DNA of 64,000 bases from Flaccisagitta enflata (GCA_965153355.1 OZ231126.1:39184001-39248000); one strand, 5' to 3'; positions 4,892 through 35,530 are shown, numbered from the stretch's first letter. Notes: generated by a model from the sequence alone, not told the origin. Numbers and translations: made by a program.

Positions 4892-6100
4892 TATTCATAT
4901 TACCCTTTCGACCGATATTAGAAGATGATAACGACAAGGAAAAGAAGAAATCGCCCGCGGGAGACAATTCCAGATTGCCCCAACAGTTGCATGAATGCAA
5001 AAAGATCAGCGCTTTAACAGAATCCTGTCTTGCACTGGAGAAGGCTAACAAGGAATTGAAACAAAAATACGAATTGAAAAGTCATGCAGAAAAGTTACAC
5101 AATGATAAACAGGGTGAAGAATTCAAAAATCGGCAAAAAGATGAAGGTATGTGCCGCCAATCCGACTTCGCTGTTGTTGGTTTGAAAATTGTTGGACCGA
5201 TCATATGAATGTCAGTTGTAGCCGGTCCTGCGTGGACAGATGGAAAGTCGCATGGCACCACAGCGCCTCAAATGCTGACTTTGTCTGATTCCATGAAAAA
5301 GTACGATTTTCAACATTAAGAATTCATATACGTGTAGAGCCTCCATCGTGGGGGACACTGTTGGCCCTATCTTTTGGCGTTGCATTGTACTTTTGGGACC
5401 TTGGCGCTGACGTTCTGGTGGGAAAGGAACAATATCTTCGATTTTATCAAAGACGTAAACTACAAGGTAGGAGTTTAGTAAGGACCGCGATGCTGTTAAA
5501 CCACTGTCTCAAAGGTGTCTCATTTAACTTGATTTGCCAAAGATATAAAATTCATCATTAAGACAAAAAAGCAGTGTTTTTTTTTCATGGCACAATATGT
5601 GGTTAATTTTGGAGTTAGCGAGCTAATCATCTGTGTAACAAGGTTGCAGCAAGGTTGCTATGGATAACTAACTTATCTTAAATTGAAATCCTTAATGTTA
5701 TATCATAACAATTTCACATAGCATCCTCGTGGCGAAATGAAGTTAAGAAGTGCTTCAGATATCATTTTTGCAATTTTTGTCCATCCCTTTAATCCAATAG
5801 CTAAATAGGGAATTAAAAAAATCACAAAGATAATTGTTTTCCTTTTCTCAAAATTCATTTGTCTTTCCTTTTAGAGTTGAATGAGGAAACAAATTTTCAA
5901 TGATCTTTTGTTGCTAAAGAAAAAAAATCACACAATTATTTTACAAAAATCACTCGCAAAAGCAAGACGAAAATGTTATGGGCATTTTCTGTTACACAGA
6001 TGCGCAGTCTCAACAATGCAGTTTGTAGTGTCTTGAACCAACAAATTATGTTATGCAAATTGTTTTTAAAAATGTATCAAAGAAAAAGAAAAACAGTGAG

Positions 6101-6783
6101 TGTCATCAATTGCGCCGTATTTTGTTATCCTCTTGTCCATCTACAGGAAATCTCGCAAATTTCGTTATTTCGGGTGTCGCTCCAGGACTCCTCTTCCTCA
6201 TCATCCTCCTCCTCTCACGACTCCTCGACTTCTCTCCTCCTCATCCTCGACTTCTCTCTTCCTATGGACTCTTTTCTGGAGAGAACTTTATCAGGATTCT
6301 TCGTCTTCAATCAAGAATAAATGACTCATTTAAAGTTCGACTAAAGATCACGCAAAGATCATTTTTAGATTTAAAGACTCATTGCCTCGCCATTGCTATG
6401 ATATATTGTGCATATCCTTGTTTTAGATTTCTCTTTTTCCCCCAGTGCAAGCGAGAAAGCTTCCTCTGTATATCGTTTCTATAGGACATTAATGTGGTTA
6501 TCTCGGACTTCTGCTGTCATTCCCCCCCTTCCGGAAATCATTCATCCCTGACTCCTCAGGTAGCGAGCCTTGTCAATGATGTGGTCTGGCCCACTTTTCC
6601 TTTTTGGCTCATCCTAATATCCGCCCCCCCCTCTCCCTTTTCTCATTTATCATAGAACTTACAGATCCCTTCATTCTCCAATTCGCGTATTCGTTCTAGC
6701 GGGATTCTTAAGACGGAGTTACTCAGCGATCATCAGGGCATCTAGCTAGCTAGTGAACTGTTCATACGTCACGGACTCGCACA
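6101..6783 (+). repeat. 5' LTR
   Basis: TGTCATCAATT...GGACTCGCACA; matches 17325-18007 except three substitutions seen by eye (6109, 6263, 6549). Confidence 0.97.
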
Positions 6784-6806
6784 ATCTGTAAGTTCTGACA
6801 GTTCAC

Positions 6807-6823
6807 TGGCTCCCTTCGGTGAA
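6807..6823 (+). promoter_or_regulatory. Candidate primer-binding site (imperfect tRNA-Asp-like)
   Basis: TGGCTCCCTTCGGTGAA resembles the complement of a eukaryotic tRNA-Asp 3' end (TGGCTCCCCGTCGGGGAA, from memory). It lies 23 nt downstream of the LTR, which is atypical. Confidence 0.4.
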
Positions 6824-7062
6824 AGCAAGCGAACAACACCCGCCTCCCCTTCCTCTTCACCCTTCCGGTCACGACGAAAGCTCAAGAACATTCTCCTCCT
6901 CATCTTCCTCATCACTTCTCCCTCCTCCTCATCCTCCCAATTACGGTGAAAGCTCAAGAACGTTCTCCCCTTCCTCATCTTCCATTACGTCATTCTTCCT
7001 CCTCATCATTCTAACACGGTAAAAGACAAAGAAACTCTTCCTCTTCCTCATCATCCATCACG

Positions 7063-9924
7063 ATGGCAGCAAAGGCCCGCGCAGAAAAAGCCAAAATTCT
7101 GGAAGATACTTTGAGAAAGATGCCCGACTTCAACGCCGTGATCGTGGCAGCGGACGCCGGAGCTATCGGCGGAAGCGGCGCCTCGGTAAACACGGCGATG
7201 ACGTCGGACTTCCAAACGGAAAGTGACGAGAGATCTAGAGAAGCGAAGGCAACGGCACAAACATTGGGACTGCTCGCGCGCTTCTTCGCTCTGCGACATG
7301 ACGATGTATTGAAAGAGTTCGCCGGCGTCGACGATCATGACGCACATCAGGCATTTCTCTACATTGACGACATGCGCGTCGCGCTCGTGGGAAAAATGTG
7401 GCTTTTCCACGAAATGATTACGAAAAAACTATTTCCCGCCAACACGAGAGAGGACATTCACGGACGAAAATCGGCTGGAAACCACATCAACGTCATCTTA
7501 AAAGACTTCCTCCATACGCGTCGCGCATGCCTTTCACAAGAAACCTACGACGACCCGGACTACGCGCCAAAACCGCCAACAAAAACTGACTTTGTACAAA
7601 ACTCCGCCAGAAAAGGAAGTGTATCGGACAGAGCATTGGCGCTTGCTAACTCCGCCAAGGACTTCATCGGCGAGGTCACATCGCCGAGAAAAGCGAAATC
7701 ACTCGCCAACGATAAGTTTACGGGAAAGAAAAATGATAAAAAAACGGCGTCGCCGGCGCCCCCCGGAACATCGGGGGAAACCGCGGCGCCATCGGTCAGT
7801 GACGTCAAAGTGGATAAGAAAAAACTCACGCCTAAGAATACAGAAGGTGATAAAAAAGAACAAGACCCGGCGACGGAAGACCCAAACGACGCCGACGACG
7901 CCGCCACGAAAAAGTCAGGCGCGCCTGAAGAAGACAGCGCCGAAACTGACGACGAAGCGGAACAAAAGCGCCGCCAAGCAGGAAACGCAAAAGCGGCCGG
8001 CTGGGTCGCTGATCAACAAGAACAACAAATCGCGCAACAAAACAATCAATACCATGACGCCGTCCAAAGCATCATCAACACGAGCGAGACCCACGCGATA
8101 GCAATTGAAAAAGACAATGAACATTATGAAGAAGTCCTCAAAAGAGAAAAAGAAGAAACAGAACGCGTGAAAGAAGAATTGAGAAACTTGGAAGCAATCC
8201 ACGAATTACAAAGAAAAAAACGACGAGAACAAGAAAAGAAAAAAGACGAACTAAAACAACAACAACAACAGCAGACGAACAAAGCCATACAAACGAACAA
8301 AAGACAATTAACAGCTCAAAAGAGACAAGCAGAGATAATTCAAAGCGTGGAATTGGTTCAAGCGGAAAAACAAGACGCGAGTGAAAAACTAGAAAAACTA
8401 AAGCGCCAGATTCAGAACAATTTGGACGAATTAACAGAAGAAGAAGACGAGGTACAGTTCATCGACGCCGTATTCTCGTCGACGCAAAATGACGCGCCGA
8501 CGCCAAGCGAGAGCGCCGCGACAACAACCGGAAGTGGAAAGAAAAAACGCCGATCCCCACACAAAAAGAGCCCAAATGCAGCGAGATATCCTCCTCCCAA
8601 TCTACCTCCCCTGGGCGATAACTTCCCAAAAGACGTCAGACGAGTGGGCGTCGAGTACAAACCGGCGCCAAAACCGGCGCCCAAACCGGCGCCGAAAATG
8701 CAGAACGGCGACGCCGCGGGAGGTCATGCATCCCCCGCGACTGACGCCAGACGAACAACTAATACGATTTCTTCAGCAACCGCGGCGCCGCAGCACGACT
8801 TCTCTAAATTCATTCGCACGCTAGAATTGGACACCGTCAGAAGAAGCATCGTTGGGGTCCGACCAGAGACACTATTTAAACAATACGATTCGAAAAAAAA
8901 GGGCGAATACAACTCCTTAATGAACCAGTTCGACTCGGCTTTCGGCTTCATCCCTGGAATAACCGGCAACGAAAAAGTCACGGAATTATCGGGACATTGG
9001 TTTGCTGGAGCAGCAAAAAAGGCGTTGAAGGCAGCAAGACCGACAGCGGACGATCCGAATGGAGACATCGCCTACGCAAAAGTGAGGTCACATCTAGACT
9101 CAATTTATGGCCAAGACATTGATTCCGCCGCCGACGCCCTCGCCAGACTGAAGGAAGGCGGAGTCGTCGCCAAAGACAGCCTCACTGCGCATCAAGACCT
9201 CTACCTCAACATGCTGGAGGCGGAAAGCTCGGCGTTATCAGCGTCGTCGACGGAGTTATTCGACAGAACGTCCACCCTGATCGAGATCATGTCGGCGAGA
9301 TTACCGCACCAAATGGAGAAATTCTTCGAAACGTATGAAGAAGGAGAAGGATTCCAGAAGCTTCTCGAATTCATCCATCGGCGAATTACAATCCTAAAAA
9401 CCATTCAGGTGACGACTCAAAAACCACAAACAATAAAAATTCACGCGACGGAGACAAAAGAAATTAAAAACCAACAATACGGCCCCAATACATTCGCCCA
9501 ACAAGTACAAAATTCCCCAAAGAAGGAAGAAAAGAAGGTTAGATGCACTCACTGCCAAGGCCTTCATCAGACGACAACATGCAACCGTCTTCTCATCCTA
9601 TCGCTGCCCGAAAGAATTGAAATCGCCAATAAAGCCCGAATGTGTTATCATTGCATGGAGACGACGCACAACGCTAAAGACTGCCCGGAGAAAAAAGAGG
9701 TCTCATGTTCAATGTGCAATAAAAAAGGACACATCGCCATGTTTCACGGCAGGACCTGGCTTAACCAAGCCAATGGACAGACGGACCGCTTCCGACGAGG
9801 CGGCAATGACACCAACCTAAAAATCGTCGATCCTCCGAAAACGGCGCCGCTCAACGCCGGCGCAGCGGGAAACAACGCCGCCGCGAAACAAACCGACGAG
9901 GAAGTGGAAAACCCCCCCATCTGA
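7063..9924 (+). CDS. gag: BEL/Pao Gag (953 aa)
   Basis: Long coiled-coil region and three C-terminal Zn knuckles (CTHCQGLHQTTTC, CYHCMETTHNAKDC, CSMCNKKGHIAMFH), typical of BEL/Pao. Confidence 0.93.
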   Translation: MAAKARAEKAKILEDTLRKMPDFNAVIVAADAGAIGGSGASVNTAMTSDFQTESDERSREAKATAQTLGLLARFFALRHDDVLKEFAGVDDHDAHQAFLYIDDMRVALVGKMWLFHEMITKKLFPANTREDIHGRKSAGNHINVILKDFLHTRRACLSQETYDDPDYAPKPPTKTDFVQNSARKGSVSDRALALANSAKDFIGEVTSPRKAKSLANDKFTGKKNDKKTASPAPPGTSGETAAPSVSDVKVDKKKLTPKNTEGDKKEQDPATEDPNDADDAATKKSGAPEEDSAETDDEAEQKRRQAGNAKAAGWVADQQEQQIAQQNNQYHDAVQSIINTSETHAIAIEKDNEHYEEVLKREKEETERVKEELRNLEAIHELQRKKRREQEKKKDELKQQQQQQTNKAIQTNKRQLTAQKRQAEIIQSVELVQAEKQDASEKLEKLKRQIQNNLDELTEEEDEVQFIDAVFSSTQNDAPTPSESAATTTGSGKKKRRSPHKKSPNAARYPPPNLPPLGDNFPKDVRRVGVEYKPAPKPAPKPAPKMQNGDAAGGHASPATDARRTTNTISSATAAPQHDFSKFIRTLELDTVRRSIVGVRPETLFKQYDSKKKGEYNSLMNQFDSAFGFIPGITGNEKVTELSGHWFAGAAKKALKAARPTADDPNGDIAYAKVRSHLDSIYGQDIDSAADALARLKEGGVVAKDSLTAHQDLYLNMLEAESSALSASSTELFDRTSTLIEIMSARLPHQMEKFFETYEEGEGFQKLLEFIHRRITILKTIQVTTQKPQTIKIHATETKEIKNQQYGPNTFAQQVQNSPKKEEKKVRCTHCQGLHQTTTCNRLLILSLPERIEIANKARMCYHCMETTHNAKDCPEKKEVSCSMCNKKGHIAMFHGRTWLNQANGQTDRFRRGGNDTNLKIVDPPKTAPLNAGAAGNNAAAKQTDEEVENPPI

Positions 9925-10149
9925 CTAGGAGCGACCGGCGTGGAGAATTTCATCGCGCCGGATGATGATGTGATTCGCCCGATTGTACTCGTGCGGATTC
10001 GCAACGTCGAGACCGGCGCTTCGGAAATGATTTACGCCATGTTAGATACATGTGCAGATAAGGATGTAATCTCGGAAAACATAGTAAAGCGACTCAACCT
10101 TACATACACGACAAAGACAATGACAGTACAAACAGTTGAAACAAAATGA
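9925..10149 (+). CDS. pol: Pol N-terminus: aspartic protease, in frame with gag after the TGA
   Basis: IYAMLDTCADKDVIS retropepsin-like active-site motif; same frame as gag; ends at TGA 10147 because of a 1-nt frame change. Confidence 0.85.
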   Translation, partial: LGATGVENFIAPDDDVIRPIVLVRIRNVETGASEMIYAMLDTCADKDVISENIVKRLNLTYTTKTMTVQTVETK

Positions 10150-13100
10150 CACAAAAACGCAGACTTGCAAATTTTCAATTGGAATCCATTCACTCATCGT
10201 ACAAAACTAACGTCGGACAAGCCCTAGTGGCTAAACTATGGAGCAGCGACAATGACATTCCACCAGCAAAACGTGATTTGACTAAATTCAACCATCTCGA
10301 CGGCATTAAATTCGACGACGAGGACGTGGAGGTCGGTATGATCATCAGTGTTGCGCACGCCGATACATGGACTCAAGGACCGTTTATTCGCGGCCCAAAA
10401 AAATCCCCCACCGCAATGTGGACGGAGTGGGGATACACGATCTTTGGAGTCGGCTGCCAACGCGACCATCGCGACGTTTCCGTGAACCTCCTCGCCGTTG
10501 ACGACACCAACGTTAAATACGACTACGAACGCATCTTTTATCACGACTTCCCCCAAGTGACGGCTAAAGAAATGGGAGACTCCCACGCGAATCGCAAAGC
10601 AATTCTAATGTTACAAGAAGGCATTCGATTCGACGAAGATAAACAGAAATACGTGTCGGTCCTACCGTGGTTGAAGAATAGAGAAGAAGCGGCAGCCATC
10701 CTCAACGTTCTCGATTCCGAAGGAATGGCGAAGCGCAGACTAATCTCAATGATGCCACGATTTGAACACGACCCTGTCTTTAAAGAAAGAGTCTTCTCGG
10801 AAATGGACAAATTCTTCACGAAAGGATACGCTACTCCCATCCCAAACAGCGAAATGGACCCCAGCATCCCAAGATGGTATCTTCCCATGCATCCTGTGGA
10901 TAAGCATGGGAAGATTAGAATGTGCCATGACGCCAGAGCAAACGTCAACGGAATATGCCTCAATGACCTTCTCCTCGGCGGCCCTAACATCATCAATCCG
11001 CTCGTCGATATACTTGTCAAATTTCGGGAGAACCCCATCGCCTTCATGACCGATATTTGTGGTTTTTTCCACAACGTCCTCGTCGACGAGAAGGATCGCG
11101 AAGTCTTCCGCTACTTATGGTTCGCCGACACCAAGATGGCGGAAGTGTGGAGATACCAATTTTTCTCCCACATCTTCGGCGCCGGATCGTCATCCATCGT
11201 GACCGGATTCGTCCTCCGCTATCACGCTGACAAGATTAGGCCCAAATTCCCCGACAACGTCTATCAAACGATCAGAAATAAATTTTATGTCGATGATGGC
11301 GCCGGCGGTGGACGAACAGTTGCATCTGCACTGGAACTGAAGCAGAATCTGAAGGAGGCGATGCGTCTTGGCGGTTTCCAGCTCGAAAAATGGCAGTCAA
11401 ACGCCCCCGAGCTCGTGGACGGCGAGGAAGGACACGCAATAAAAGCCATCTCAGATTCTGCCGAAGAGAACGTCACAAAGGTATTGGGCGTCTCGTGGGA
11501 CTCGAAAAACGACAACTTCGTCTTCCAATTTGACAAAGAGAAGATCAACAAAGCCGTCAATACCCCTCATCAACTTGTGTCAGTTCAAGCGTCAATATAC
11601 GACCCCCTCGGCTTCCTCTCTCCGTTCTGCCTCCTGGGCCGCAAACTGCTACAACAAGCGACTTCCGGTTCACCTGGATGGGATTCTAAACTCAAACCTG
11701 TCGTCAAGGAGGAATTCGCCGCATGGGCGAGATCCATCATCCTCCTCATCAACATCACGATCCCCAGATGCTTCACAAAGGCAGACCTCGGCGACCCGAT
11801 TGTAATCGAATGCCACATTTTCGTGGATGCAGCACCCGGAGGATTTGGCGCCGTCGTGTACAGACTGGAGAGATATTCCAACGGCGAAGTTTTCATCACC
11901 ATCGTCACATCAAGAAGCCACGTCGTCCCCTTGAATTCAGCAAAAGCATCTCACCACAATTCCATCCCGCGCCTCGAATTAGTTGCAGCAGAAAAGGGCG
12001 TGCAGCTGCACAATTTCGTCAACAGCGCCGTGGAGATCCCATTTCAAAGGACAGTGATGTGGTCAGACAGTGAAGTGGTGTTGAAACAAATCTTTGACGA
12101 AGCAAAAGTTCACGGACCTTTCATCAACAATCGCCTATCAAAAATCTACGCAGTTACAAAGCCGGACGATTGGAGATACGTCGAAGGCCCGAGGAATCCG
12201 GCTGATCACTGTTCAAGAGGAATACGCGCGGATGAGTCCGAAAAATGGGCAACATTCCATCGCGGACCCGACTTCCTCTATCAAGACGAAAGCCAATGGC
12301 CGGTCACAACTGTACCTCGACACAAAAAGCCGACGACAATGGTCCTCGCCACGCATGTAATCCCAACTCCACCGGAAGTTCCTCTAGATGGATGCGGATA
12401 CGCCAAACTGGTCGTCGACATCGACGGCTGGTATAAAAAAGTCATGAGAGTAGCATCTCTACGGAAAATCATCGCCTTCTGGAGGAAGTATCGTCGTGGT
12501 CAAGCCCAACAACCAAATCAATGGACGGCCACGTCAACTGGAAACCTGCGTATCACCATCGCAAAAAAGAAGCCCAAACAGCCCGTCAACTTAACCATCT
12601 CAATACTCGAGTTTCGAGAAGCGGAGAACCTAATTTTCGCCGCGACTCAGAAGGTCAATTTCCCAAAGGAATGGCAGAATTTGGTGGACCGCGACATCTT
12701 TCATCCCAATTCGAACAAGGAAATGACAATGAAAAACTCCCCCCTCATCACTCACAACCCCTTCGTCGACGAGTGCGGCATCATCCGCGTCGGCAGCCGA
12801 TTGGTCAACTCTACAATTAAAGAGGAAGCAAAATTCCCAATCATCCTCCCACGCAAAGATGAAAACGTGCGCGCGTATATTCGCTTCATCCATGATTATG
12901 AACTCCATGCGGGCGCAAAACACGTCCTCAACTCATCGCGTCAACGCGTTTGGATCATCCATGGGCTACAGGAAGTGACTTCCGTCATCCGAAAATGCAT
13001 CTCATGCCAAAAAGCGTTCAAAAAGCCAATGACGCAAAAAATGGCAACGCTCCCATCCTTCCGCGTGAACCCCCTTCCTCCATACGAGTATACAGGACTT

Positions 13101-14024
13101 GATCTCTTCGGCCCAATCGGCGTAAAAATCAATAAAAGAGCGTCGTGGAAAGTATGGGTGGTGGTGTTCACCTGTATGTCAACGCGATCGGTCCACGCAG
13201 AGATCGTCATGAAACAGGACGCGAGTTCTCTCATCTTGGCAATCTGCAGATTCGCAGCGCGGAACCCCAATGTCCGCCATTTCATTTCTGATCGCGGATC
13301 TAACATGACGGCAGCGGACAAAATCCTCAAACAACAACTCGCTAATTACAACGAATCTGCGGCTCAACAACTGAAAAGAAAAGGCATCCAATGGGACTTT
13401 ATTCCCACGGCTACTCCCCATTACGGCGGCGTCTGGGAGAGGGTCGTCGGACTCTTCAAAAAGCATATAAAAGCCATGGCAATCGGCGAGTCAATTCACT
13501 ACGACGTCTTCCAAACAGCCATCGTCGAAATTGAAGCGGCTTTGAACCGCCGCCCCCTAACGGCGGTACCAGCAGAATCCAACAGCTGCGAAGCCATCAC
13601 GCCTCTTTCAATTCTTAACCCGACTGCGCGATCTCACTCCGACGTCGTCGTCATTCCTGACGCATCATCAACGGAAGTCGACCGTCTCAAATCCGCGTGG
13701 ACTAATGCCCAGGCTCTAGTCAATCGTTTCTGGAACGCCTGGAAGAGAGACTACATATCGCTTCTCCATGGACGAGAAAAATGGCAACGATCCTCAAAAA
13801 ATCTCGAAATCGACGACCTCGTCCTACTGGTGGACGAAAAAGTATCGCGCGGACATTGGAAACTTGGTCGCGTGGTAAAAGTGGAAATGGACAACGGTCA
13901 TGTCAGAAAGGCATACCTGAGAACAGCCGACAAGAAAGTGGTTCTACGAGATAGGACAAAGCTCGTGCACTTGGAGATGGACCAAGAAGAGGATTCGGAC
14001 CAACAGCTCATCTCTGTGGCATGA
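10146..14024 (+). CDS. pol: BEL/Pao Pol: protease C-terminus, reverse transcriptase, RNase H, integrase
   Basis: RT motifs WYLPMHPV, LNDLLLGGP and FYVDDG; RNase H motifs HIFVDAA and SIPRLEL; integrase HHCC (H...HAG...CISC), GLDLFGP, SDRGSN and GGVWERVV; C-terminal FWNAWKRDYI...WKLGRV. Confidence 0.96.
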   Translation: MTQKRRLANFQLESIHSSYKTNVGQALVAKLWSSDNDIPPAKRDLTKFNHLDGIKFDDEDVEVGMIISVAHADTWTQGPFIRGPKKSPTAMWTEWGYTIFGVGCQRDHRDVSVNLLAVDDTNVKYDYERIFYHDFPQVTAKEMGDSHANRKAILMLQEGIRFDEDKQKYVSVLPWLKNREEAAAILNVLDSEGMAKRRLISMMPRFEHDPVFKERVFSEMDKFFTKGYATPIPNSEMDPSIPRWYLPMHPVDKHGKIRMCHDARANVNGICLNDLLLGGPNIINPLVDILVKFRENPIAFMTDICGFFHNVLVDEKDREVFRYLWFADTKMAEVWRYQFFSHIFGAGSSSIVTGFVLRYHADKIRPKFPDNVYQTIRNKFYVDDGAGGGRTVASALELKQNLKEAMRLGGFQLEKWQSNAPELVDGEEGHAIKAISDSAEENVTKVLGVSWDSKNDNFVFQFDKEKINKAVNTPHQLVSVQASIYDPLGFLSPFCLLGRKLLQQATSGSPGWDSKLKPVVKEEFAAWARSIILLINITIPRCFTKADLGDPIVIECHIFVDAAPGGFGAVVYRLERYSNGEVFITIVTSRSHVVPLNSAKASHHNSIPRLELVAAEKGVQLHNFVNSAVEIPFQRTVMWSDSEVVLKQIFDEAKVHGPFINNRLSKIYAVTKPDDWRYVEGPRNPADHCSRGIRADESEKWATFHRGPDFLYQDESQWPVTTVPRHKKPTTMVLATHVIPTPPEVPLDGCGYAKLVVDIDGWYKKVMRVASLRKIIAFWRKYRRGQAQQPNQWTATSTGNLRITIAKKKPKQPVNLTISILEFREAENLIFAATQKVNFPKEWQNLVDRDIFHPNSNKEMTMKNSPLITHNPFVDECGIIRVGSRLVNSTIKEEAKFPIILPRKDENVRAYIRFIHDYELHAGAKHVLNSSRQRVWIIHGLQEVTSVIRKCISCQKAFKKPMTQKMATLPSFRVNPLPPYEYTGLDLFGPIGVKINKRASWKVWVVVFTCMSTRSVHAEIVMKQDASSLILAICRFAARNPNVRHFISDRGSNMTAADKILKQQLANYNESAAQQLKRKGIQWDFIPTATPHYGGVWERVVGLFKKHIKAMAIGESIHYDVFQTAIVEIEAALNRRPLTAVPAESNSCEAITPLSILNPTARSHSDVVVIPDASSTEVDRLKSAWTNAQALVNRFWNAWKRDYISLLHGREKWQRSSKNLEIDDLVLLVDEKVSRGHWKLGRVVKVEMDNGHVRKAYLRTADKKVVLRDRTKLVHLEMDQEEDSDQQLISVA

Positions 14025-14498
14025 GCAGAAAAAATATCAAAAATTCCCGGGCAATCGTCTGGGACTAATTGGTATTGCTATGATCATCATATCATCTTCT
14101 TGATCCGTTATTTTCTCTCTTAATCGCTTATATTTCTTATTTTCCCCGCCTAAAAGCTAAACTCGAGAAATATCAGGATTCCCGGGCAGTTGTCTGGGGC
14201 TATTGATGTTACTACTCTCTCTATTTTTGTTTTCTCTTTATCATCGTTCATAATATTAACAATCACTCCATTCTTGCTATTACCTTTCTTCACTTCTTCA
14301 CATCTCATGACCGGCTTCTTCCTCATCCTCGACCTCTCTACATCATCATCATCTGATCTACACATGCATATGATTATTATCTTCATATGATTCCTTGCTT
14401 GCTTCTCATCTTTAAAATTCATCCCAATCACGTCGTTACATTATACATGAACTCATGCGTTCCTCCCCATTCTTAGATCAAGAGAAAGATAATACGAA

Positions 14499-16871
14499 AT
14501 GGCGAATTTAAGCGAGACGAGCGGGCGTGGAATCGCCAAGCTGGGGACGGAAGCCGGATCACCGGCGGAAACTCCCGGCGCCGGCGAAGAAACGCCCTCC
14601 TCCTCCTCATCATTCTCATCATCAACCCCCCTTCCTCCCGGCGCGAAGAAAAAGCGCCCCCACGTCGACGCCGCCGTAGATCAAAATGCGGAAGATCTCA
14701 TCGGTCCTCTCGACTACGACGACACCGACGACCAATCTCACCACCATCCCGAGTCCATGGACACATCGGAAGCTGAGGGCACGTTTAACTCCGCCCTCCT
14801 CAACCTCTCCTCATCTCTTCCTCCTCCCTCATTCCGATGCCAGTGCGTCCCCACCTCCCTCCCCGATGACGTCAACCATGAACCCAACGTGAAATATCCC
14901 GAGAACATTCACGAACAAATTTTTCAGACTAAAACCGGCACCCCTTACTGGATCAAGCCAGGCAGGGGCATCGTTAATCACGAGGACCTCACCGTCAACC
15001 CTCCCCGCCCAGCCTTCGTTTCCTTCTCCGCCGGCGTCCAAGTCCAGATTGACGACAACGAGTGTCTGGCAAAAATCCATGCGATTGAAAACGGATCGAA
15101 GAAGGAAAAGAAAAAGTTAGCCAGAGCAGCCGCCAAAGCTAGCAGTGCGGACCCCGGAACATCGGGGGAAGCTGCTGCTGCAGAGGCGACTGCCGCGGCG
15201 CATCCCCTCCTCCCATCTTCTCGCGATGCCGCTCCTCCTCCTCCTCCTCCGCCTCCTCCTCCCGCAACTCCCGATGACGGCCTTCGGCTTCCCAACACCT
15301 CACCATACCACCACTCCATCTTCATCCCCTCCTCACTTAAGATGGACAACACGGGCCGCCTCTCTCTCGCCGCCACCATTCCTCTTCTTCCTCCTCTTCC
15401 CCAACCAGAAAACAGAGCCGACGTCAAGAGAGACTTCATCGCGTCTAAGAATCTTCTCGACCACAATAAAATATTACTAGAGCAGAAAGAGGAACAATGG
15501 ATGAAACTCGGTGGCCTGGATCCCGCCCAAAAACGATTCCTCGCGGCGGGCCAGGCCCATCACGATATTTGGACGGACATTTTTACAAAATCGTTTAAAG
15601 AACGTTTCAGCCAATGTCGTCCTGCCTCTCAAATTAACCCCGCCGATCCTCCCCTCGAGAAGTCACGCTGCTTCTTTAGGAAGTATCTCGCGGGAATCAA
15701 CGAAGATCCCAACCTAATTGAAGTATTCAATCCCATCGCACCAGCGCAGACCACGCCTCCTCCTCCTCCTCCTCCTCCTCCTTCACCTCCTCGCCATCAA
15801 TCTTCCTCGGCTCGTATTCATCCTCCTCCTCCTCCTCAGCCACGCACATCATCCTCCACTCCAGCCCGTCCACGTCCACCACCACTAATGGGCCCACCAT
15901 CTCATCCTCCTCGCCAGCAACAACAGCAGTCAAAGGACGCGAAGGGCAATGCCGGATCATCGGCGGCGCCTATACGTCCCGCGACAGCCTCCACATCACC
16001 TCGTCAACATCCTCAACATCCTCCTCAACATCCTCCATCCAGCGTCGTCAACATACCACCTCCACAGAAACGCGCAAGAAGCCCCATCCGCCACCCCGAC
16101 CAAAGACGTCCATCATCACCATCTCCAGCACGACGTCAATCTCACACACCATCACTGCATCGTCCACCCACCACTTCGTCATCTTCATCATCTTCACGGC
16201 CTCGTCAATCCCCCGGCCCTTCCTCTTCTGATAGGCCAGCAGGCCCCGGCCGTCGGTCGGGGTCGTCCTCTGGCCCGTCAAGGGAGAGGGAGGAAAAGGA
16301 GAAAGAAGAGGAAAAGAAGAAAATCGACGAGGTTTTCAAGCGCCTCGCCCTTCTCGAGCTTGAAAATCAGGAATTGAAGCAGACTGTGACGTCGTTGAGA
16401 AAAGACGCGACGGCACAAAAACAACAACAAAAAAGACAAGAACAACAACAACAAAGGGACTTCAACCTGCAACAACAACAACTACAACAACATCGATCCG
16501 ACATTAACATCGTCGCTCATCGCACCCTCCAAACCACGGCGGCGGTCGGTAACGTGGGACTCGTCGTCGAATCGGCACGACGCCCTATATCGGAGATGTG
16601 GCAACGCCATCAACAACAGACGTCGCCATCTCCATCCCGCCATTCTTCCCACGATCGCCCGATGAAATTACCGGCGATAGACTTTACGTCATCTCCTTCC
16701 AACGACGAGATGGATTTCGCCTCCGAAGAGACGATTGACGATTGGGCGGCGGCCGCAAGTAATTCGCAGCCAGCCGACAACGACGACGTCTACACCCTCA
16801 GCCCGGCGCCAAAAGGAGGAACCTATCGTGGAGGCGCCACCGCTTCCGGAAGGAAATCTCGTCCTCACTAG
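14499..16871 (+). CDS. Accessory ORF3 of the BEL element (790 aa; Pro/Ser/Gln-rich with C-terminal coiled coil; function unknown)
   Basis: Uninterrupted 790-codon ORF between pol and the 3' LTR, starting GAAATGG; preceded by a polypyrimidine-TAG acceptor at 14475-14476; no signal peptide or TM segment visible. Confidence 0.85.
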   Translation: MANLSETSGRGIAKLGTEAGSPAETPGAGEETPSSSSSFSSSTPLPPGAKKKRPHVDAAVDQNAEDLIGPLDYDDTDDQSHHHPESMDTSEAEGTFNSALLNLSSSLPPPSFRCQCVPTSLPDDVNHEPNVKYPENIHEQIFQTKTGTPYWIKPGRGIVNHEDLTVNPPRPAFVSFSAGVQVQIDDNECLAKIHAIENGSKKEKKKLARAAAKASSADPGTSGEAAAAEATAAAHPLLPSSRDAAPPPPPPPPPPATPDDGLRLPNTSPYHHSIFIPSSLKMDNTGRLSLAATIPLLPPLPQPENRADVKRDFIASKNLLDHNKILLEQKEEQWMKLGGLDPAQKRFLAAGQAHHDIWTDIFTKSFKERFSQCRPASQINPADPPLEKSRCFFRKYLAGINEDPNLIEVFNPIAPAQTTPPPPPPPPPSPPRHQSSSARIHPPPPPQPRTSSSTPARPRPPPLMGPPSHPPRQQQQQSKDAKGNAGSSAAPIRPATASTSPRQHPQHPPQHPPSSVVNIPPPQKRARSPIRHPDQRRPSSPSPARRQSHTPSLHRPPTTSSSSSSSRPRQSPGPSSSDRPAGPGRRSGSSSGPSREREEKEKEEEKKKIDEVFKRLALLELENQELKQTVTSLRKDATAQKQQQKRQEQQQQRDFNLQQQQLQQHRSDINIVAHRTLQTTAAVGNVGLVVESARRPISEMWQRHQQQTSPSPSRHSSHDRPMKLPAIDFTSSPSNDEMDFASEETIDDWAAAASNSQPADNDDVYTLSPAPKGGTYRGGATASGRKSRPH

Positions 16872-17324
16872 GAGGCGATCTCATCGGTGGAGACGTATAT
16901 CGGGTCGATGTCGTCAAGATCGTGGACGGACGCCGGATCACCGGCGGAAAACCCACGGTAAATGCGGCGACAAAACCCGACGCGTAGCTCCCACCATTAT
17001 CGTCCTCCTCTTCATCTCGATCCTCCTCGCTGCGAAGCCGAATTCAACGCCGGAGCATCGGCGTGAATCTCGGCAAAAGTAACGGCAAACCCATTTTCTC
17101 ATTATTCTCGTCCTCCTCCTCATCTTCTGTACATAGTTCTTGTTTGTCTATTCTGTCGTGTTTATTCTTTTCTGTTCATCGTGTTCCCCCTCCCCCCAGT
17201 CCACATCATATTAACTTTCCTCAAAATTTTTTTTTTACTCGCTTGCACAGTAGTCATGTTTTCCTCTAGTTTTCCCCCCCCTTCGAGAAATCAACTTATC
17301 TGTCATATTGACAGATCCTGGGGC

Positions 17325-18007
17325 TGTCATCAGTTGCGCCGTATTTTGTTATCCTCTTGTCCATCTACAGGAAATCTCGCAAATTTCGTTATTTCGGGTG
17401 TCGCTCCAGGACTCCTCTTCCTCATCATCCTCCTCCTCTCACGACTCCTCGACTTCTCTCCTCCTCATCCTCGACTTCTCTCTTCCAATGGACTCTTTTC
17501 TGGAGAGAACTTTATCAGGATTCTTCGTCTTCAATCAAGAATAAATGACTCATTTAAAGTTCGACTAAAGATCACGCAAAGATCATTTTTAGATTTAAAG
17601 ACTCATTGCCTCGCCATTGCTATGATATATTGTGCATATCCTTGTTTTAGATTTCTCTTTTTCCCCCAGTGCAAGCGAGAAAGCTTCCTCTGTATATCGT
17701 TTCTATAGGACATTAATGTGGTTATCTCGGACTTCTGCTGTCATTCCCCCCCTTCCGGAAATCATTCATCCCCGACTCCTCAGGTAGCGAGCCTTGTCAA
17801 TGATGTGGTCTGGCCCACTTTTCCTTTTTGGCTCATCCTAATATCCGCCCCCCCCTCTCCCTTTTCTCATTTATCATAGAACTTACAGATCCCTTCATTC
17901 TCCAATTCGCGTATTCGTTCTAGCGGGATTCTTAAGACGGAGTTACTCAGCGATCATCAGGGCATCTAGCTAGCTAGTGAACTGTTCATACGTCACGGAC
18001 TCGCACA
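17325..18007 (+). repeat. 3' LTR
   Basis: Near-identical to 6101-6783; followed by the TSD GTGAG. Confidence 0.97.
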
Positions 18008-18142
18008 GTGAGAGCCTTGATATTAGTCCCTTTGCATTTATCAAAGGGGGCAAAATAAACGCCAACTTTTGCTACGTGAAGCACCCAAGTTGAAGAGACA
18101 GCGTCTTAAAATGCGTAGACACCTTTCTGAATGAGTTCTTCT

Positions 18143-20919: not shown

Positions 20920-21156
20920 GTAAGTTTAGGCTGTGATTAACATAGTACATTTCATTTCCTAGTTTGTTCCAATGTTCAGCCAAAAAGACGACTCTCGACG
21001 TAGTTAAAAAGTAGTAGATGAGGGGTTTGTTTGCTGCTATGTTTTTTTTCTGTTTTTTTTTTTTCTCTCTCTGCATGTCTGCTGCTCTGTTTTTTCTGCA
21101 TGTCTGTTTTTCTGCATGTCTGTTTTTCTATTTGTCTCTCTCGGTCATACTTTCTT

Positions 21157-21250
<94 letters not shown>

Positions 21251-21265
21251 TCCATTTCCTCTCAG

Positions 21266-22293
21266 AGTTGATCGCATCCCCCATTCCGCTGCGACTTACC
21301 AAAGCTAGTTCAGAGACAACAGGTGGCGTTGGAATGGTCGTGGAATCGATCGGAGCGAAGATTTTGCTGTGGGGATCTAGAAAAAAATCCCCCAACGTCA
21401 TCCGGATGTACGACGTGAATAATGAAACATGGGCGGAAAAGGAAGCGGGAGGCGAAATACATCCAGGTTACGCGAATGCCGCGAGTGTCATCGTTGGAGA
21501 AGAGATTTACATGTTCGGCGGTTTCCGAGATGAACAGAGAGGGAAACAAATAGAAACAAACTGCATCTCAAAAGTCTCGACAAAAACTGGCGAATTCCAG
21601 CGTATCAAAATCAACGGAGTTTCTCCTTTTCCCCGCTTTAAGGCAGTTGCCTGGAGTCACGAGGGTGATCTATGTTTCGGATTTGGTCACAGTGATGGGA
21701 GGCAAAAGATTTCGGGAGAGAGTTACATCGAAGAGAACAGAAGATGGACCCGAAAACCCGGCTTGGGTTTCACAAATGAAATCCTGCGATTTGACAAAAG
21801 ACAAAACTCTTTTGCCTCGCTCATCACGAATGGATCTTCGCCAAAACCCCGCATTGGATTTGGCTTTGCCAAATTGGATGGAAAAATATACGTTCACGCT
21901 GGACAAGGAGAACACTATAATGGGTTGAAAGACTTCTTTCGAATGGATTTAAAAATCAGTGAATGGACTTCACTGAAGGCCCGCGGTCTTCCATACAGCC
22001 TTCAATATCACTCCCTGTCGCTGCTCTCTTCGAAGCAATTGATGCTGGTTGGTGGAGAAAAAAGTCCTTGGGAAAAATCAAATCGAGTCATGATTTACAA
22101 TGTACAAAACGGTTCATGGACGGAAGATCAGCTTCTGCCGGACTCAGTCGGCGGGGGTGAAGGCGGTGGATTGGTGTACCACAGAGCCGCAGAAGTGAAA
22201 AACGGAAAGAATGTCACAACAATCATTTGTATGGGAGGAAAAGTGAAAGGCAACAAACTCTCCAAGCACATGCTTCATTTTGACTTACCCTGA
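21266..22293 (+). CDS. Kelch-repeat beta-propeller terminal exon
   Basis: IYMFGGF, PFPRFKAVAW, PKPRIGFGFAKLDGKIYVHAG, YHSLSLLSSKQLMLVGG and IICMGG; the CAG acceptor at 21263-21265 is phase-compatible with the EGF exon. Confidence 0.85.
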
Positions 22294-25903: not shown

Positions 25904-26735
25904 GAGGCAATTGCAACTGTCTGTTGTTCCCATTTCATTGTGAATTTGGAAAAAAAATTTGCACGCGAAAAAAAAAAGAAAAAGAATAAAATCATGCCTC
26001 GACCCAGTGACTTTCCTAAGGACCATAACGGCTCTTATCTCACCTTATCAATTTTAACAAGGCCGGATTCACGGCTACCTTAGTCGCGTGCGGGTGGGCA
26101 GGGGCAGTATTTGAGTTACTAAAGCACTTGGGCAAGTGCAGTGAGGCCAAAGACCGCAAAAAATAAAAAAAGTAAAATGGGGACCGACCGACCGACGGAC
26201 AAAGCGGGGTGTAGTGTCGCGTAGCACGCGACTAAAAAACATGAAAAATGGTGACTCGATACAAGTGTACTGGGTTAGAACAGATATCATGGAATTGATA
26301 ATTCTGCATGATGTTGTACAGAATTCTGTGCGATCAATAGTTTTGGAGCTATGATTTTTTGAATCTTTGTTTATTTTTGCGCATTTTTCGCGTTTTCCCA
26401 AAAAACAAGGAATCGAGTTAGTTGTAGTCTATTTGAACTTCGAAATGTCCCAGGTGATAACTGTGAATCAAGGCAGCACAGTCTCTCTCTCATTTCAACT
26501 CTGGACTCTATAAGAGGCATTGTCTGTCAGTCCATCCCTTGGTCTGTTGGTCCGTCTGTCCATCCGAGTGGAAAAGTGGAAAAACAAGCGGTCTAGATGC
26601 TTTTTGAGTAGGGGTTGGGGTGTGAATGGGGGTTGGATGCCCCTGTCCACCTGTCTGCAGCGATATTATAACCCCGTGTTACATGTTTTTCTCTGTTTTT
26701 CTCTCTGTCTCTCTCTCCCCCTCTGTCTCTCTCTG

Positions 26736-26823
<88 letters not shown>

Positions 26824-28170
26824 TCTCTCTTCCACTCTCTCTCAACAACAACATGAGGACGCAATGTGACAAAAATGACAAACCCTTTTGTGTTATTGTT
26901 ATAAATTTCGCTAAAGATGATTCCATTCGCCTCGTATGTATCTTTAGATTTAAGATCAACACATGTTTAAATATTTTCGACAGAGAAAAAATGGCAAAAT
27001 TGCATGAAAAGCATTCTTTTAGTTGGCCTTTTGTGATGAAATTTTGACAATAGCAGACTGATTCTTTATTGCTTGTAATGCTTTGACAAAAATCATTAAG
27101 CAGGTGTTACTTGCTTATGTATCACGACCTATCCCCATGTCTTCTACAACTTCCAATCTGGAGCTAGCACTCTTAGTCTGACGGTACATCGCACCGTCGG
27201 TCGACCACTCTGTCTAGGTCGCTTTTGGCAATGATAAGGATCTTGGCTTTTTCGGTGGTATTTGATCATTACCTCTAAATTTTGAACGGATAGATTTTTA
27301 CAAGAGGTAACGAACCGACGTACGAATCTACAAACAGACCGATAGACTAAACAGCTTATGATCATGAAGACGTGATGATGCATCTATGAAATGTCATGCC
27401 CAGATAAAGCGATATCTGTAGAATGTGCCCGTATCTGTTTCTTTAAAATATGTCGAAGCTTTTTGATAACATTCAGTCTTCAGTCCAATATTACATTTTA
27501 TATTCTGCGGGCTCACTAATCTTCATCGAATATCGGGACGAGCTAAAAACTACATGAAATCGAGAGATAGACCAATGAGAGTGCTCAGTTACACTTACTG
27601 CTTACACTTACAGACCAACAAATGTACTCTGTAACACTTACAGCCTTCAAACAATCTATGATATGACGTGTTTTTTTTTTTCTGAAATAAAAATCTTGTC
27701 AATTTGAAAACAATTTGTAAAAAAATTTTCATTTCTTTTGCTTTGTATTGCACTGGTGCTAACTTACAAAAGTGGTTTTCGCATTGGGTGGTGAATCGAA
27801 AATTTAATTTTGATATTTTATAACAAGTGGGTAGAACATAATCCCTTCCTTTACGAGTGATACAATTTTGCGAGCTATTCCATGGCCATACCGATGGTGA
27901 TGTTTTATTTGCATTATGTTATTAAATATTAAGTAATAATGATAATAGAAACATGTGGAGGAGTCCTAAGGGCCTCTTGAACCTTCACTGACTAGTTGAT
28001 ATGTGCTCAACTTCTAGTTTTCCATTAAAAGAATTGTAGAAACGCCCATTTAGGGTCTTGCCAACCAATAATAGTCAAGGGCAAAAGAATGCTACCTGTG
28101 CAACTAAAGTTCGTCTCAATAATCTATCCCATTGCGAAAACCCCTCAATAAAAATTGGTTAAAAGCCAGA

Positions 28171-34269: not shown

Positions 34270-35379
34270 TCGCCCTAGGAAAAAAGTCGTAAATGCTGAG
34301 AGAAAAAAAAAAAGTTGCGGACAGGTGGACAGGGGCATCCAACCCCCATCCACACCCCAGCCTCAACCTCCACACACAAGCATCTAGACCCCTTGTTTTT
34401 TCCACTTTTCCACTCGGATGGACAAACAGACCAACAGACCGATGGATTGACTGACAGACAAAGCCTCTCATATAGTCTGTAGTTGAAATGAAAGGTAAAC
34501 TGTGCTGCCAGGATGTACAATTATCACCTGAAACATTTCAAAGTTCAATTAGACTTCAACTAAATTGTTTCCTTGTTTTTGAAAAAAATGCGAAAAATGT
34601 GGAAAAACAAAAAAACATTAAAAAAATCATAGCTTTAAAACTATCAATGACACAGAATTCTGCTTGGCGTCATCTGAAATAGGAGAATTAGCTCTTACTT
34701 AGCTTTCAATCTCATGCATAGTGTCATTCGGCCCAAAAAACAGATCAACTTCCCCAAACTCCCCATGAGAAAAGGGGAAAATTGATTTCCCCCGTAGGTC
34801 TCAAAAAGCCGAAGGTATTTTTCGACTTTTTTCCAGACAAGAATTTGGAAAGTTGTAAGTGGACGTGGATCAAGAGCTTTGGCTTTTCGGCCACTTTAAT
34901 CACAACCGAAGTGGCCCTTATTCCGCAACAACAACAACAATAACAGAAATGACAATGACATTTTTTCGACAAATCAACTTTTTCAACAATAAAATCATCA
35001 CTAATGGGCAAAATAAGTAACATTTCCGTAAAAGAAAAGACAATGACACAACAATGGAAAAAGCCATCCCATAGCGCATGTGTAAAAAAAGCAAACAACA
35101 AAAACAACAATTACAACACCAATCGAAAGAAACATCCCTCAGTGCAGTGCCGGCAGCATGAACATTTCTACCAAATTTTCTACAAGGAATTTTTACCTTG
35201 AAACCATTGGACAATTCAACATTAACAGCCTGCTTCTTTCAGGCCGTTGCCGATGGATTCAATTACGATTGAACAACCACATCAACAGCCACATCTACAA
35301 CAACAATGACAACAACAACAAACAGCAGTATCAACAATCACAGATCAATGACAGTGTCAACGACTGCGTCAATGATGGC

Positions 35380-35530
35380 GACAGCTGCAGTGACAGCTGC
35401 GGCGACAGCTGTGGCGACAGCTGGGGCGACAGCTGCGGCGAGAGCTGCGGCGAAAGCTGCGGCGACAGCTGCAGCGACAGCTGCGGCAACTGCGGCGGCA
35501 ACAGCGGCGGCAACAGCTGCGGCGATAGCT
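35380..35530. repeat. 12-bp GC-rich minisatellite (GACAGCTGCGGC)n within an (AAC)-rich tract
   Basis: About 12 tandem degenerate units are visible. Confidence 0.85.

Follow-up and report, generated by a model that had tools for sequence, protein, structure and literature searches.

Repeated hairpins in a BEL/Pao retrotransposon of Flaccisagitta enflata as candidate modular RNA signals

Results

A young BEL/Pao element carries all the hairpins

The locus analyzed here is a 64,000-nt stretch of the Flaccisagitta enflata genome (GCA_965153355.1, OZ231126.1:39184001-39248000; hereafter the window, read 5' to 3' on one strand and numbered from its first base), and our subject is a set of seven G/C-rich hairpins that all lie in one complete long terminal repeat (LTR) retrotransposon. 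Its open reading frames (ORFs) run in the order gag, pol, and ORF3 between two LTRs (Table 1). It is a BEL/Pao (Belpaoviridae) LTR retrotransposon because pol encodes Peptidase_A17 (Pfam, 2.8e-30), integrase (Integrase_H2C2 and rve), and DUF5641 (2.1e-20) domains; the TG...CA termini of the LTRs and the GTGAG duplication on both flanks agree with this assignment. The element is young.

No Pfam family matched gag or ORF3. The C-terminal region of gag, read directly from the translation, contains three Cys/His knuckle-like motifs (CX2CX3HX4C, CX2CX4HX4C, and CX2CX4HX4H). The Atlas search with ORF3 was likewise without a match; residues ~251-420 were modelled as a helical hairpin (predicted local distance difference test, pLDDT, 64) for which PDB held no match at E <= 0.001, and residues ~81-215 gave a poor model (pLDDT 36). 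Protein searches with ORF3 returned nothing among proteins of similar length and two fragments, of 96% identity, among shorter ones. The source label of one fragment, 'merc', presumably denotes a marine transcript catalogue, and it was not counted as evidence of expression.

The retrotransposon family is very abundant in the DNA runs of one organism, three of which contained 4049, 1169, and 393 contig pieces of the element, many merely 85-95% alike and thousands within the range 85-99%; several studies' marine metagenome runs contain it too. Most of the differences that separate copies of the family are transitions. None of the 40 differences listed, out of 1437 between copies, is located in a hairpin, which is uninformative either way.

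Table 1. Positions of the retrotransposon's parts, the seven hairpin copies, and the stem-loops predicted around them. Flank-shuffle z, core fixed and flanks dinucleotide-shuffled; synonymous z, core protected and flanking codons synonymously resampled; probabilities are predicted pair probabilities.
Feature	Position	Strand	Description	Flank-shuffle z	Synonymous z
Target-site duplication	6096-6100 and 18008-18012	+	GTGAG, from flanking sequence
5' LTR	6101-6783	+	683 bp, TG...CA; 3/683 mismatches to 3' LTR
gag ORF	7063-9924	+	953 aa; no Pfam match
pol ORF	10146-14024	+	Pfam: Peptidase_A17, Integrase_H2C2, rve, DUF5641; zero module copies
ORF3	14499-16871	+	790 aa, mostly low-complexity; no Pfam, Atlas, or fold match
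3' LTR	17325-18007	+	683 bp
Hairpin copy 1	7155-7171	+	CGCCGG-AGCTA-TCGGCG; gag; 5-nt loop variant
Hairpin copy 2	7761-7776	+	CCCCGG-AACA-TCGGGG; gag
Hairpin copy 3	14553-14566	+	GCCGG-ATCA-CCGGC; ORF3
Hairpin copy 4	15152-15167	+	CCCCGG-AACA-TCGGGG; ORF3
Hairpin copy 5	15951-15964	+	GCCGG-ATCA-TCGGC; ORF3
Hairpin copy 6	16931-16946	+	CGCCGG-ATCA-CCGGCG; 3' untranslated region (UTR)
Hairpin copy 7	17048-17063	+	CGCCGG-AGCA-TCGGCG, ATTCA/TGAAT beneath; 3' UTR
Predicted stem-loop 1	7119-7212	+	94 nt, 33 bp; loop AGCUA; GGA/GAA purine internal loop; probability 0.86-0.88	-3.9	-3.7
Predicted stem-loop 2	7717-7814	+	Loop AACA; probability 0.99 apical, 0.43-0.45 lower stem	-0.6	-2.8
Predicted stem-loop 3	14511-14607	+	97 nt, 31 bp; loop AUCA; internal loop ACGGAA/GGAAAC	-2.6	-3.2
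Predicted stem-loop 4	15120-15199	+	80 nt, 27 bp; loop AACA; GGA/GAA internal loop; probability 0.72-0.90	-1.5	-0.4
Predicted stem-loop 5	15926-15988	+	63 nt, 19 bp; loop AUCA; weakest, without purine flanks	-0.8	-1.0
Predicted stem-loop 6	16889-16989	+	101 nt, 32 bp; loop AUCA; internal loop ACGGA/GAAAAC; 3' UTR; probability 0.88-1.0	-2.9
Predicted stem-loop 7	17027-17085	+	59 nt, 21 bp; loop AGCA, continued AUUCA/UGAAU; 3' UTR	-1.8
Possible eighth, divergent member	16200-16311	+	-63.2 kcal/mol, z -4.4; rank 1 of 418 windows; R1 9.2 bits

The hairpins exceed chance and share a module

An earlier note, made from the sequence alone, had described seven dispersed copies of one RNA hairpin in this element, and direct reading of the sequence found every one of them where it had been placed. 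The tip common to the copies is a 5-6 bp G/C helix, (C)SCCGG/YCGGS(G), capped by an ANCA tetraloop in six of the seven; copy 1 has AGCUA. The note's remark that GAA often trails the hairpin holds for five copies, where GAA or GGAA comes right after the 3' arm (copy 7 has TGAA and copy 5 GCG), and the ATTCA/TGAAT extension that it gave for copy 7 is seen in the predicted fold. All copies have the same orientation, two being in gag and five in ORF3 plus the 3' UTR, with none in the LTRs or in the leader (6784-7062). Both the pattern scan and the covariance model R1, which was built from the seven copies, bore out the note's statement that pol has none.

The occurrence of the motif is not random. 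The strict pattern CCGGANCAYCGG (CCGG-ANCA-YCGG) matched six times on the plus strand, not at all on the minus strand, and nowhere in the window outside the element; dinucleotide-preserving shuffles of the element (n = 2000) gave a mean of 0.013 and a maximum of one. The plus strand of the internal region contains 17 CCGGA words, six of which continue as NCAYCGG. R1 scored its training sites at 32-40 bits, values that are high by construction, and its next-best match in the window reached 15.5 bits, at 35461 inside an unrelated GCGACAGCTGCG tandem repeat; an array of this type occupies 35370-35520.

Two other hairpins within the element were rejected as members of the set: CCGG-CGCT-TCGG at 10013, with a folding z of +0.3, and an AU-rich ANCA hairpin at 11150, which is at chance level with 1.1 expected per shuffle. 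In viral contigs, a motif scan found 41 loci with one copy apiece, on one strand or the other, which are presumably chance hits. Among the curated RNA families of Rfam 15, the best scores were 13-19 bits against gathering scores of 37-95, with all E-values > 0.6 and none of the matches at a hairpin.

Aligned, the copies give the consensus GnnGGCGGAC-GCCGG-AnCA-TCGGC-GGAAAC, and copies 1, 3, 4, and 6 share a module of ~27 nt, RCGGAM-SCCGG-ANCA-YCGGS-GGAARC. This arrangement puts 5'-GGA opposite 5'-GAA just beneath the G/C helix; in copies 1 and 4 the prediction is a 3x3 purine loop with G-C and C-G closing pairs, which may form tandem purine-purine pairs. The covarying stems that the note had reported are there in part. 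In the apical 6-bp stem, 97.6% of cells are paired and a single pair has changed both of its partners, being G-C in five copies and C-G in two; of 500 shuffles, 26 score as high. Because both C-G copies are identical over 19 nt, this covariation amounts to about one event, and the covariation argument is weak taken alone.

The signal persists when the proteins are held constant

The note's proposed comparison with codon-shuffled sequence was made for gag and ORF3. When synonymous codons were shuffled with both proteins kept intact, 0.032 motifs arose on average and two at most, against the four observed, and none of 5000 shuffles reached four; the motif excess thus persists. Copies 6 and 7 are positioned 3' of the ORF3 stop, i.e., in true 3' UTR, and this stop position is common to the relatives P0010, P0011, and P0020. 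These and all other relatives were compared as protein fragments. The coding copies specify two kinds of peptide, DAGSPAE-like and DPGTSGE-like. In copy 1, the extra loop base puts the 3' arm in another codon phase, so that it encodes I-G-G in place of the S/P-A/G-E found elsewhere; the hairpin and the trailing GAA are retained despite the change of phase. The flanks have no sequence in common between copies, but pairing is common to them.

The hairpins are predicted to cap larger stem-loops

In 80-nt contexts, every hairpin formed the apex of the minimum-energy fold (z -2.2 to -3.9). The predicted structures around them are irregular stems of 59-101 nt with 19-33 bp. Each copy's own 30-nt flanks pair with one another at a mean of -22.7 kcal/mol, versus -16.4 for 42 mismatched flank combinations (permutation P 0.00095). 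Folding also exceeded what composition gives when the core was held fixed and only the flanks were dinucleotide-shuffled (z for each copy in Table 1): the summed energy had a z of -5.4, and none of 500 shuffles was as low.

Constraint was evident at synonymous sites as well. With the core protected and the flanking codons of copies 1-5 synonymously resampled, the z values (Table 1) differed from those of 71 control sites in the same ORFs, which had a mean of 0.0, an sd of 1.13, and a minimum of -2.88 (Mann-Whitney P 0.0014). Sliding 100-nt windows across the whole element had a mean z of -0.23 (sd 1.15), and the windows of copies 1, 4, 7, 3, and 6 ranked 2, 6, 10, 13, and 23 of 418.

Longer contexts of 414 and 814 nt gave apical pair probabilities of 0.76-1.0 in 13 of 14 foldings, the exception being copy 3, whose apical hairpin disappears in the 814-nt context. 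In long contexts the lower stems of copies 1, 4, and 6 held up robustly, whereas the others did so in part. On these predictions, copies 1, 3, and 6 each have good support of their own for the extended stem, the case is borderline for copies 4 and 7, and copies 2 and 5 lack such support; the lower stem of stem-loop 2 is partly supported.

The fold at 16200-16311, which no other local fold of the element surpasses in stability, is a possible eighth and divergent member. It has the same CCCCGG/UCGGGG arms, but its center pairs on to a GUC triloop (apex CCCCGGCC-GUC-GGUCGGGG), and a polypyrimidine tract in it pairs with polypurine coding sequence.

Relatives retain the module unevenly

Near-identical fragments (94-97%) retain all motifs. 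In the gag relatives P0003 (57%) and P0007 (73%), the copy 1 arm residues D-A-G and I-G-G are invariant and the loop codon varies (A, M, C); this is consistent with a hairpin but unspecific, because the entire N-terminal stretch of gag is well conserved. P0005 (67%) retains PGTSGE at copy 2 amid diverged flanks, P0017 (55%) has the stem-compatible DAGYSAE (D-A-G-x-S-A-E) at copy 3, and P0012 (48%) has GSGTLG at copy 4, residues that could still encode a G-U-rich stem. Overall, the protein fragments give mixed support. Scans of metagenome contigs yielded no relatives, with 44 stretches matched by pol and 378 by the gag N-terminal alignment A3.

Other features of the element and the window

Several further features of the element were noted. 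The 5' leader is pyrimidine-rich, with imperfect ~78-nt repeats centered on ACGGTGAAAGCTCAAGAAC; leader joints in other genomic copies omit 78-79 nt, which implies a variable repeat number. A consensus-like splice donor, GTAAGT, lies at 6789 immediately 3' of the LTR, and an acceptor-like ttcttag immediately precedes the ORF3 start, which would suit a predicted spliced ORF3 mRNA. The AT-rich spacer between pol and ORF3 (14025-14498) has a motif of ~40 nt, AATATCA..ATTCCCGGGCA.T.GTCTGGG.CTA, near 14030 and again near 14165.

At the end of gag, the TGA stop is followed directly by CTAG (9919-10145), presumably a strong context for stop-codon readthrough, and a protease-like segment (…MLDTCADKD…) runs on in the gag frame. 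At about 10140-10146, this segment and the long pol ORF are out of frame with each other in this copy; pol is interrupted near this point, or a frameshift is required. Length differences between genomic copies were noted around the same position. Within gag, AAACCGGCGCC is repeated three times in tandem at 8658-8697 and codes for KPAPKPAPKPAP, and palindromic words of the GCCGGCGC type are frequent across gag and ORF3.

Downstream of the element, a Kelch-repeat ORF (PF24681, 1.1e-28) at 21031-22293 is probably part of a host gene. Long tandem-repeat arrays with periods of 8-14 nt are present at 21046-21310, at 26615-26901, from 37221, and at 50797-51700.

Discussion

The excess of motifs over synonymous shuffles, the two untranslated copies, the phase shift of copy 1, and the pairing of the flanks indicate that the hairpins are a signal at the level of nucleic acid. 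The earlier note had read them as protein-binding RNA signals for packaging, export, or localization; the part of this that stands is the structured, nucleic-acid-level signal, and we infer the remainder, namely the RNA strand, the binding of a protein, and the process served. Protein-binding modules in sense-strand RNA are the best supported reading, as far as predicted folding can show.

Tentatively, and with confidence somewhat short of even, we propose that the seven sites are docking modules in sense-strand RNA for Gag-linked packaging. Each site would be a cis-acting structured element, a stem-loop of ~60-100 nt whose lower stem is made of local, site-specific sequence and whose tip is the shared module. 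Their most likely use would be to let one RNA-binding protein dock repeatedly and with high affinity. Gag of the element itself, which ends in the three Cys/His knuckles, would be the foremost candidate for this protein, and its binding would single out the element's RNA for uptake into particles.

A number of observations weigh against this proposal. All of the evidence comes from one copy of one element. In a polyA RNA run from the same organism as the DNA runs, of which ~6% was read, the only reads of the element were CAA repeats. Folding energy does not select a strand: at four of the seven sites the best minus-strand fold equals or betters that of the plus strand. Only the way in which the loop and the GAA tail are oriented points to the strand assigned. 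The plus-strand structures, when mirrored on the minus strand, are weaker at all seven sites, in a comparison that is biased by how the structures were derived. At copies 2 and 5, shuffled flanks are as structured as the real ones, and at copies 4 and 7 the difference is borderline. A stretch of 19 nt is identical between copies 2 and 4, and another between copies 3 and 6, which leaves few independent events; what looks like synonymous constraint could also come from sites having been copied recently from one another. The 5' arm has the codon phase xCC-GGA in all seven copies, the UTR copies being counted relative to the ORF3 frame, a pattern suggestive of descent from coding sequence or by duplication. 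Among relatives, P0017 implies the loop AUAY in place of ANCA at copy 3, and the ORF3 relatives P0013 and P0016 (36-40%) have the module-incompatible VSGAESG and VSGAEGG at copy 4. Lastly, five of the seven sites lie in ORF3 and the 3' UTR and hence also on any subgenomic ORF3 mRNA, so they fit poorly with a signal selective for genomic RNA.

The earlier note had likened the hairpins to the operator of phage MS2. MS2-type operators have a four-base loop, A-N-Y-A, and an unpaired purine two pairs below it. The loop resemblance is real, since AUCA, AACA, or AGCA in six of the seven copies fits ANYA, and GGAUCACC, present in copies 3 and 6, is what we take to be the top of the high-affinity C-variant operator. 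The rest of the likeness fails: the apical helices are uninterrupted for 5-6 bp in every copy, with no unpaired purine, and Pfam placed no levivirus coat protein family in gag, pol, or ORF3 of this element, whose host is eukaryotic. An MS2-type operator was therefore rejected, the stem purine and the cognate coat protein both being absent.

Retroviral packaging (Psi) signals offer a second comparison. In Mason-Pfizer monkey virus and mouse mammary tumor virus, according to the accounts cited here, Gag chooses purines that are left unpaired next to a palindromic stem-loop (PMC7674771, PMC8096270). The element resembles these in its palindromic G/C hairpin flanked by GGA/GAA purines, its zinc-knuckle Gag, and the presence of copies 1 and 2 at the 5' end of gag. 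Unlike such signals, its module occurs seven times, with five copies in the 3' third of the RNA and none in the 5' leader, so that the location does not match that of a retroviral-type Psi.

The nearest working model is the scheme of dispersed packaging signals known from small viruses. Satellite tobacco necrosis virus is described as having ~30 stem-loops with AXXA in loops of 4-6 bases, and MS2 as having similar sites, which serve as coat-protein packaging signals (PMC3593212); hepatitis B virus is described as having dispersed signals with RGAG loops (PMC7612645). As portrayed in these sources, the two arrangements share many scattered stem-loops, coding and non-coding, with different stems and a common loop (PMC3593212, PMC6281560, PMC7612645). 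The element's ANCA is a case of AXXA, and its shared-loop stem-loops are spread over seven sites between 7119 and 17085. The differences are that the host here is an animal LTR retrotransposon, that the copies number 7-8 and are candidate sites only, and that the G/C stem and a purine internal loop are conserved along with the loop tip. As for conservation between relatives, the protein fragments retain the arms at copies 1, 2, and 3 at 55-73% identity but not at copy 4 at 36-40%.

That the same RNA stem-loops act instead in nuclear export, stability, translation, or localization, through a host factor or ORF3 and much as retroviral transport elements or the localization signals of retrotransposons do, is in our view rather unlikely, although all of the structural evidence would apply to it equally. 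The five sites in ORF3 and the 3' UTR would be common to genomic RNA and any ORF3 mRNA, and the interval from the last ORF to the 3' LTR, which holds copies 6 and 7, corresponds to the location of the constitutive transport element (CTE) and of the direct repeats of Rous sarcoma virus. The element also shares with these an extended stem-loop form and a repeated conserved motif. Packaging accounts no better than export or stability elements do for the 3' bias of the set and for where copies 6 and 7 sit. On the other side, the element shows no sequence or Rfam similarity to the CTE or the direct repeats, it has further copies inside gag and ORF3, and ORF3 has no recognizable RNA-binding fold. 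Retroviral export elements have been reviewed (PMC4829213).

A history of copying would account for the hairpins in another way. An in-frame module coding for [D/E/N]-[A/P]-G-[S/T/A]-[S/P]-[A/G]-E could have been spread by template switching or gene conversion and be functionless, or the peptide itself could be the function. The shared codon phase, which extends to the UTR copies, the two pairs identical over 19 nt, and the retention of the peptides in relatives speak for this origin. We nonetheless hold it to be quite improbable, given that two copies are untranslated and follow a conserved stop, that the 3' arm of copy 1 codes for a different peptide with the hairpin still retained, that flanks dissimilar in sequence each pair with their own partner, and that synonymous sites flanking copies 1-3 favor pairing.

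A double-stranded DNA site, in which the interrupted CCGG...YCGG palindrome would be bound by a DNA-binding protein of the host or the element, such as a transcription or silencing factor, or would target CpG methylation, is very improbable. Each set of palindromic arms contains two CpGs, folding energies are similar on both strands, and CCGGAA/CCGGAT presumably resembles an ETS-type core. Against this, complementary flanks of 20-40 nt and synonymous sites tuned toward pairing are both superfluous in a duplex site, the copies have a single orientation and are absent from the LTRs, where control elements are expected, and in copies 1 and 7 the loop departs from the ETS core. The least credible reading takes the long imperfect hairpins as double-stranded RNA (Dicer/Drosha-type substrates or sources of small RNAs) or as acting on the antisense strand or minus-strand cDNA, and it has in its favor stems of 19-33 bp with internal loops and a minus strand that folds equally well, but the polyA RNA run is empty over the element and we know of no need of Dicer/Drosha-type substrates for a shared apical module.

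A bolder form of the preferred proposal, that the element's RNA bears identical modular tags (G/C helix, ANCA loop, and GGA/GAA internal loop) on local stems, spread through coding sequence, as a multi-site code for its assembly or trafficking, is unlikely at present. Should the hairpins prove to be a relic of copying, they would be a caution for the reading of repeated hairpins in GC-rich transposon ORFs. If the modules are real, they would exemplify RNA structure superimposed on a pair of coding regions that are unrelated to each other, may supply an orthogonal pair of RNA tag and binding protein, and would provide a compact, testable handle of ~27 nt on how BEL/Pao elements select or move their RNA. 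Searches of one open-access library, supplements excluded, yielded no description of a cis-acting RNA signal in BEL/Pao elements; a tag code, if true, would be the first cis-acting RNA element in Belpaoviridae and would extend to that family the principle of dispersed packaging signals found in small RNA viruses.

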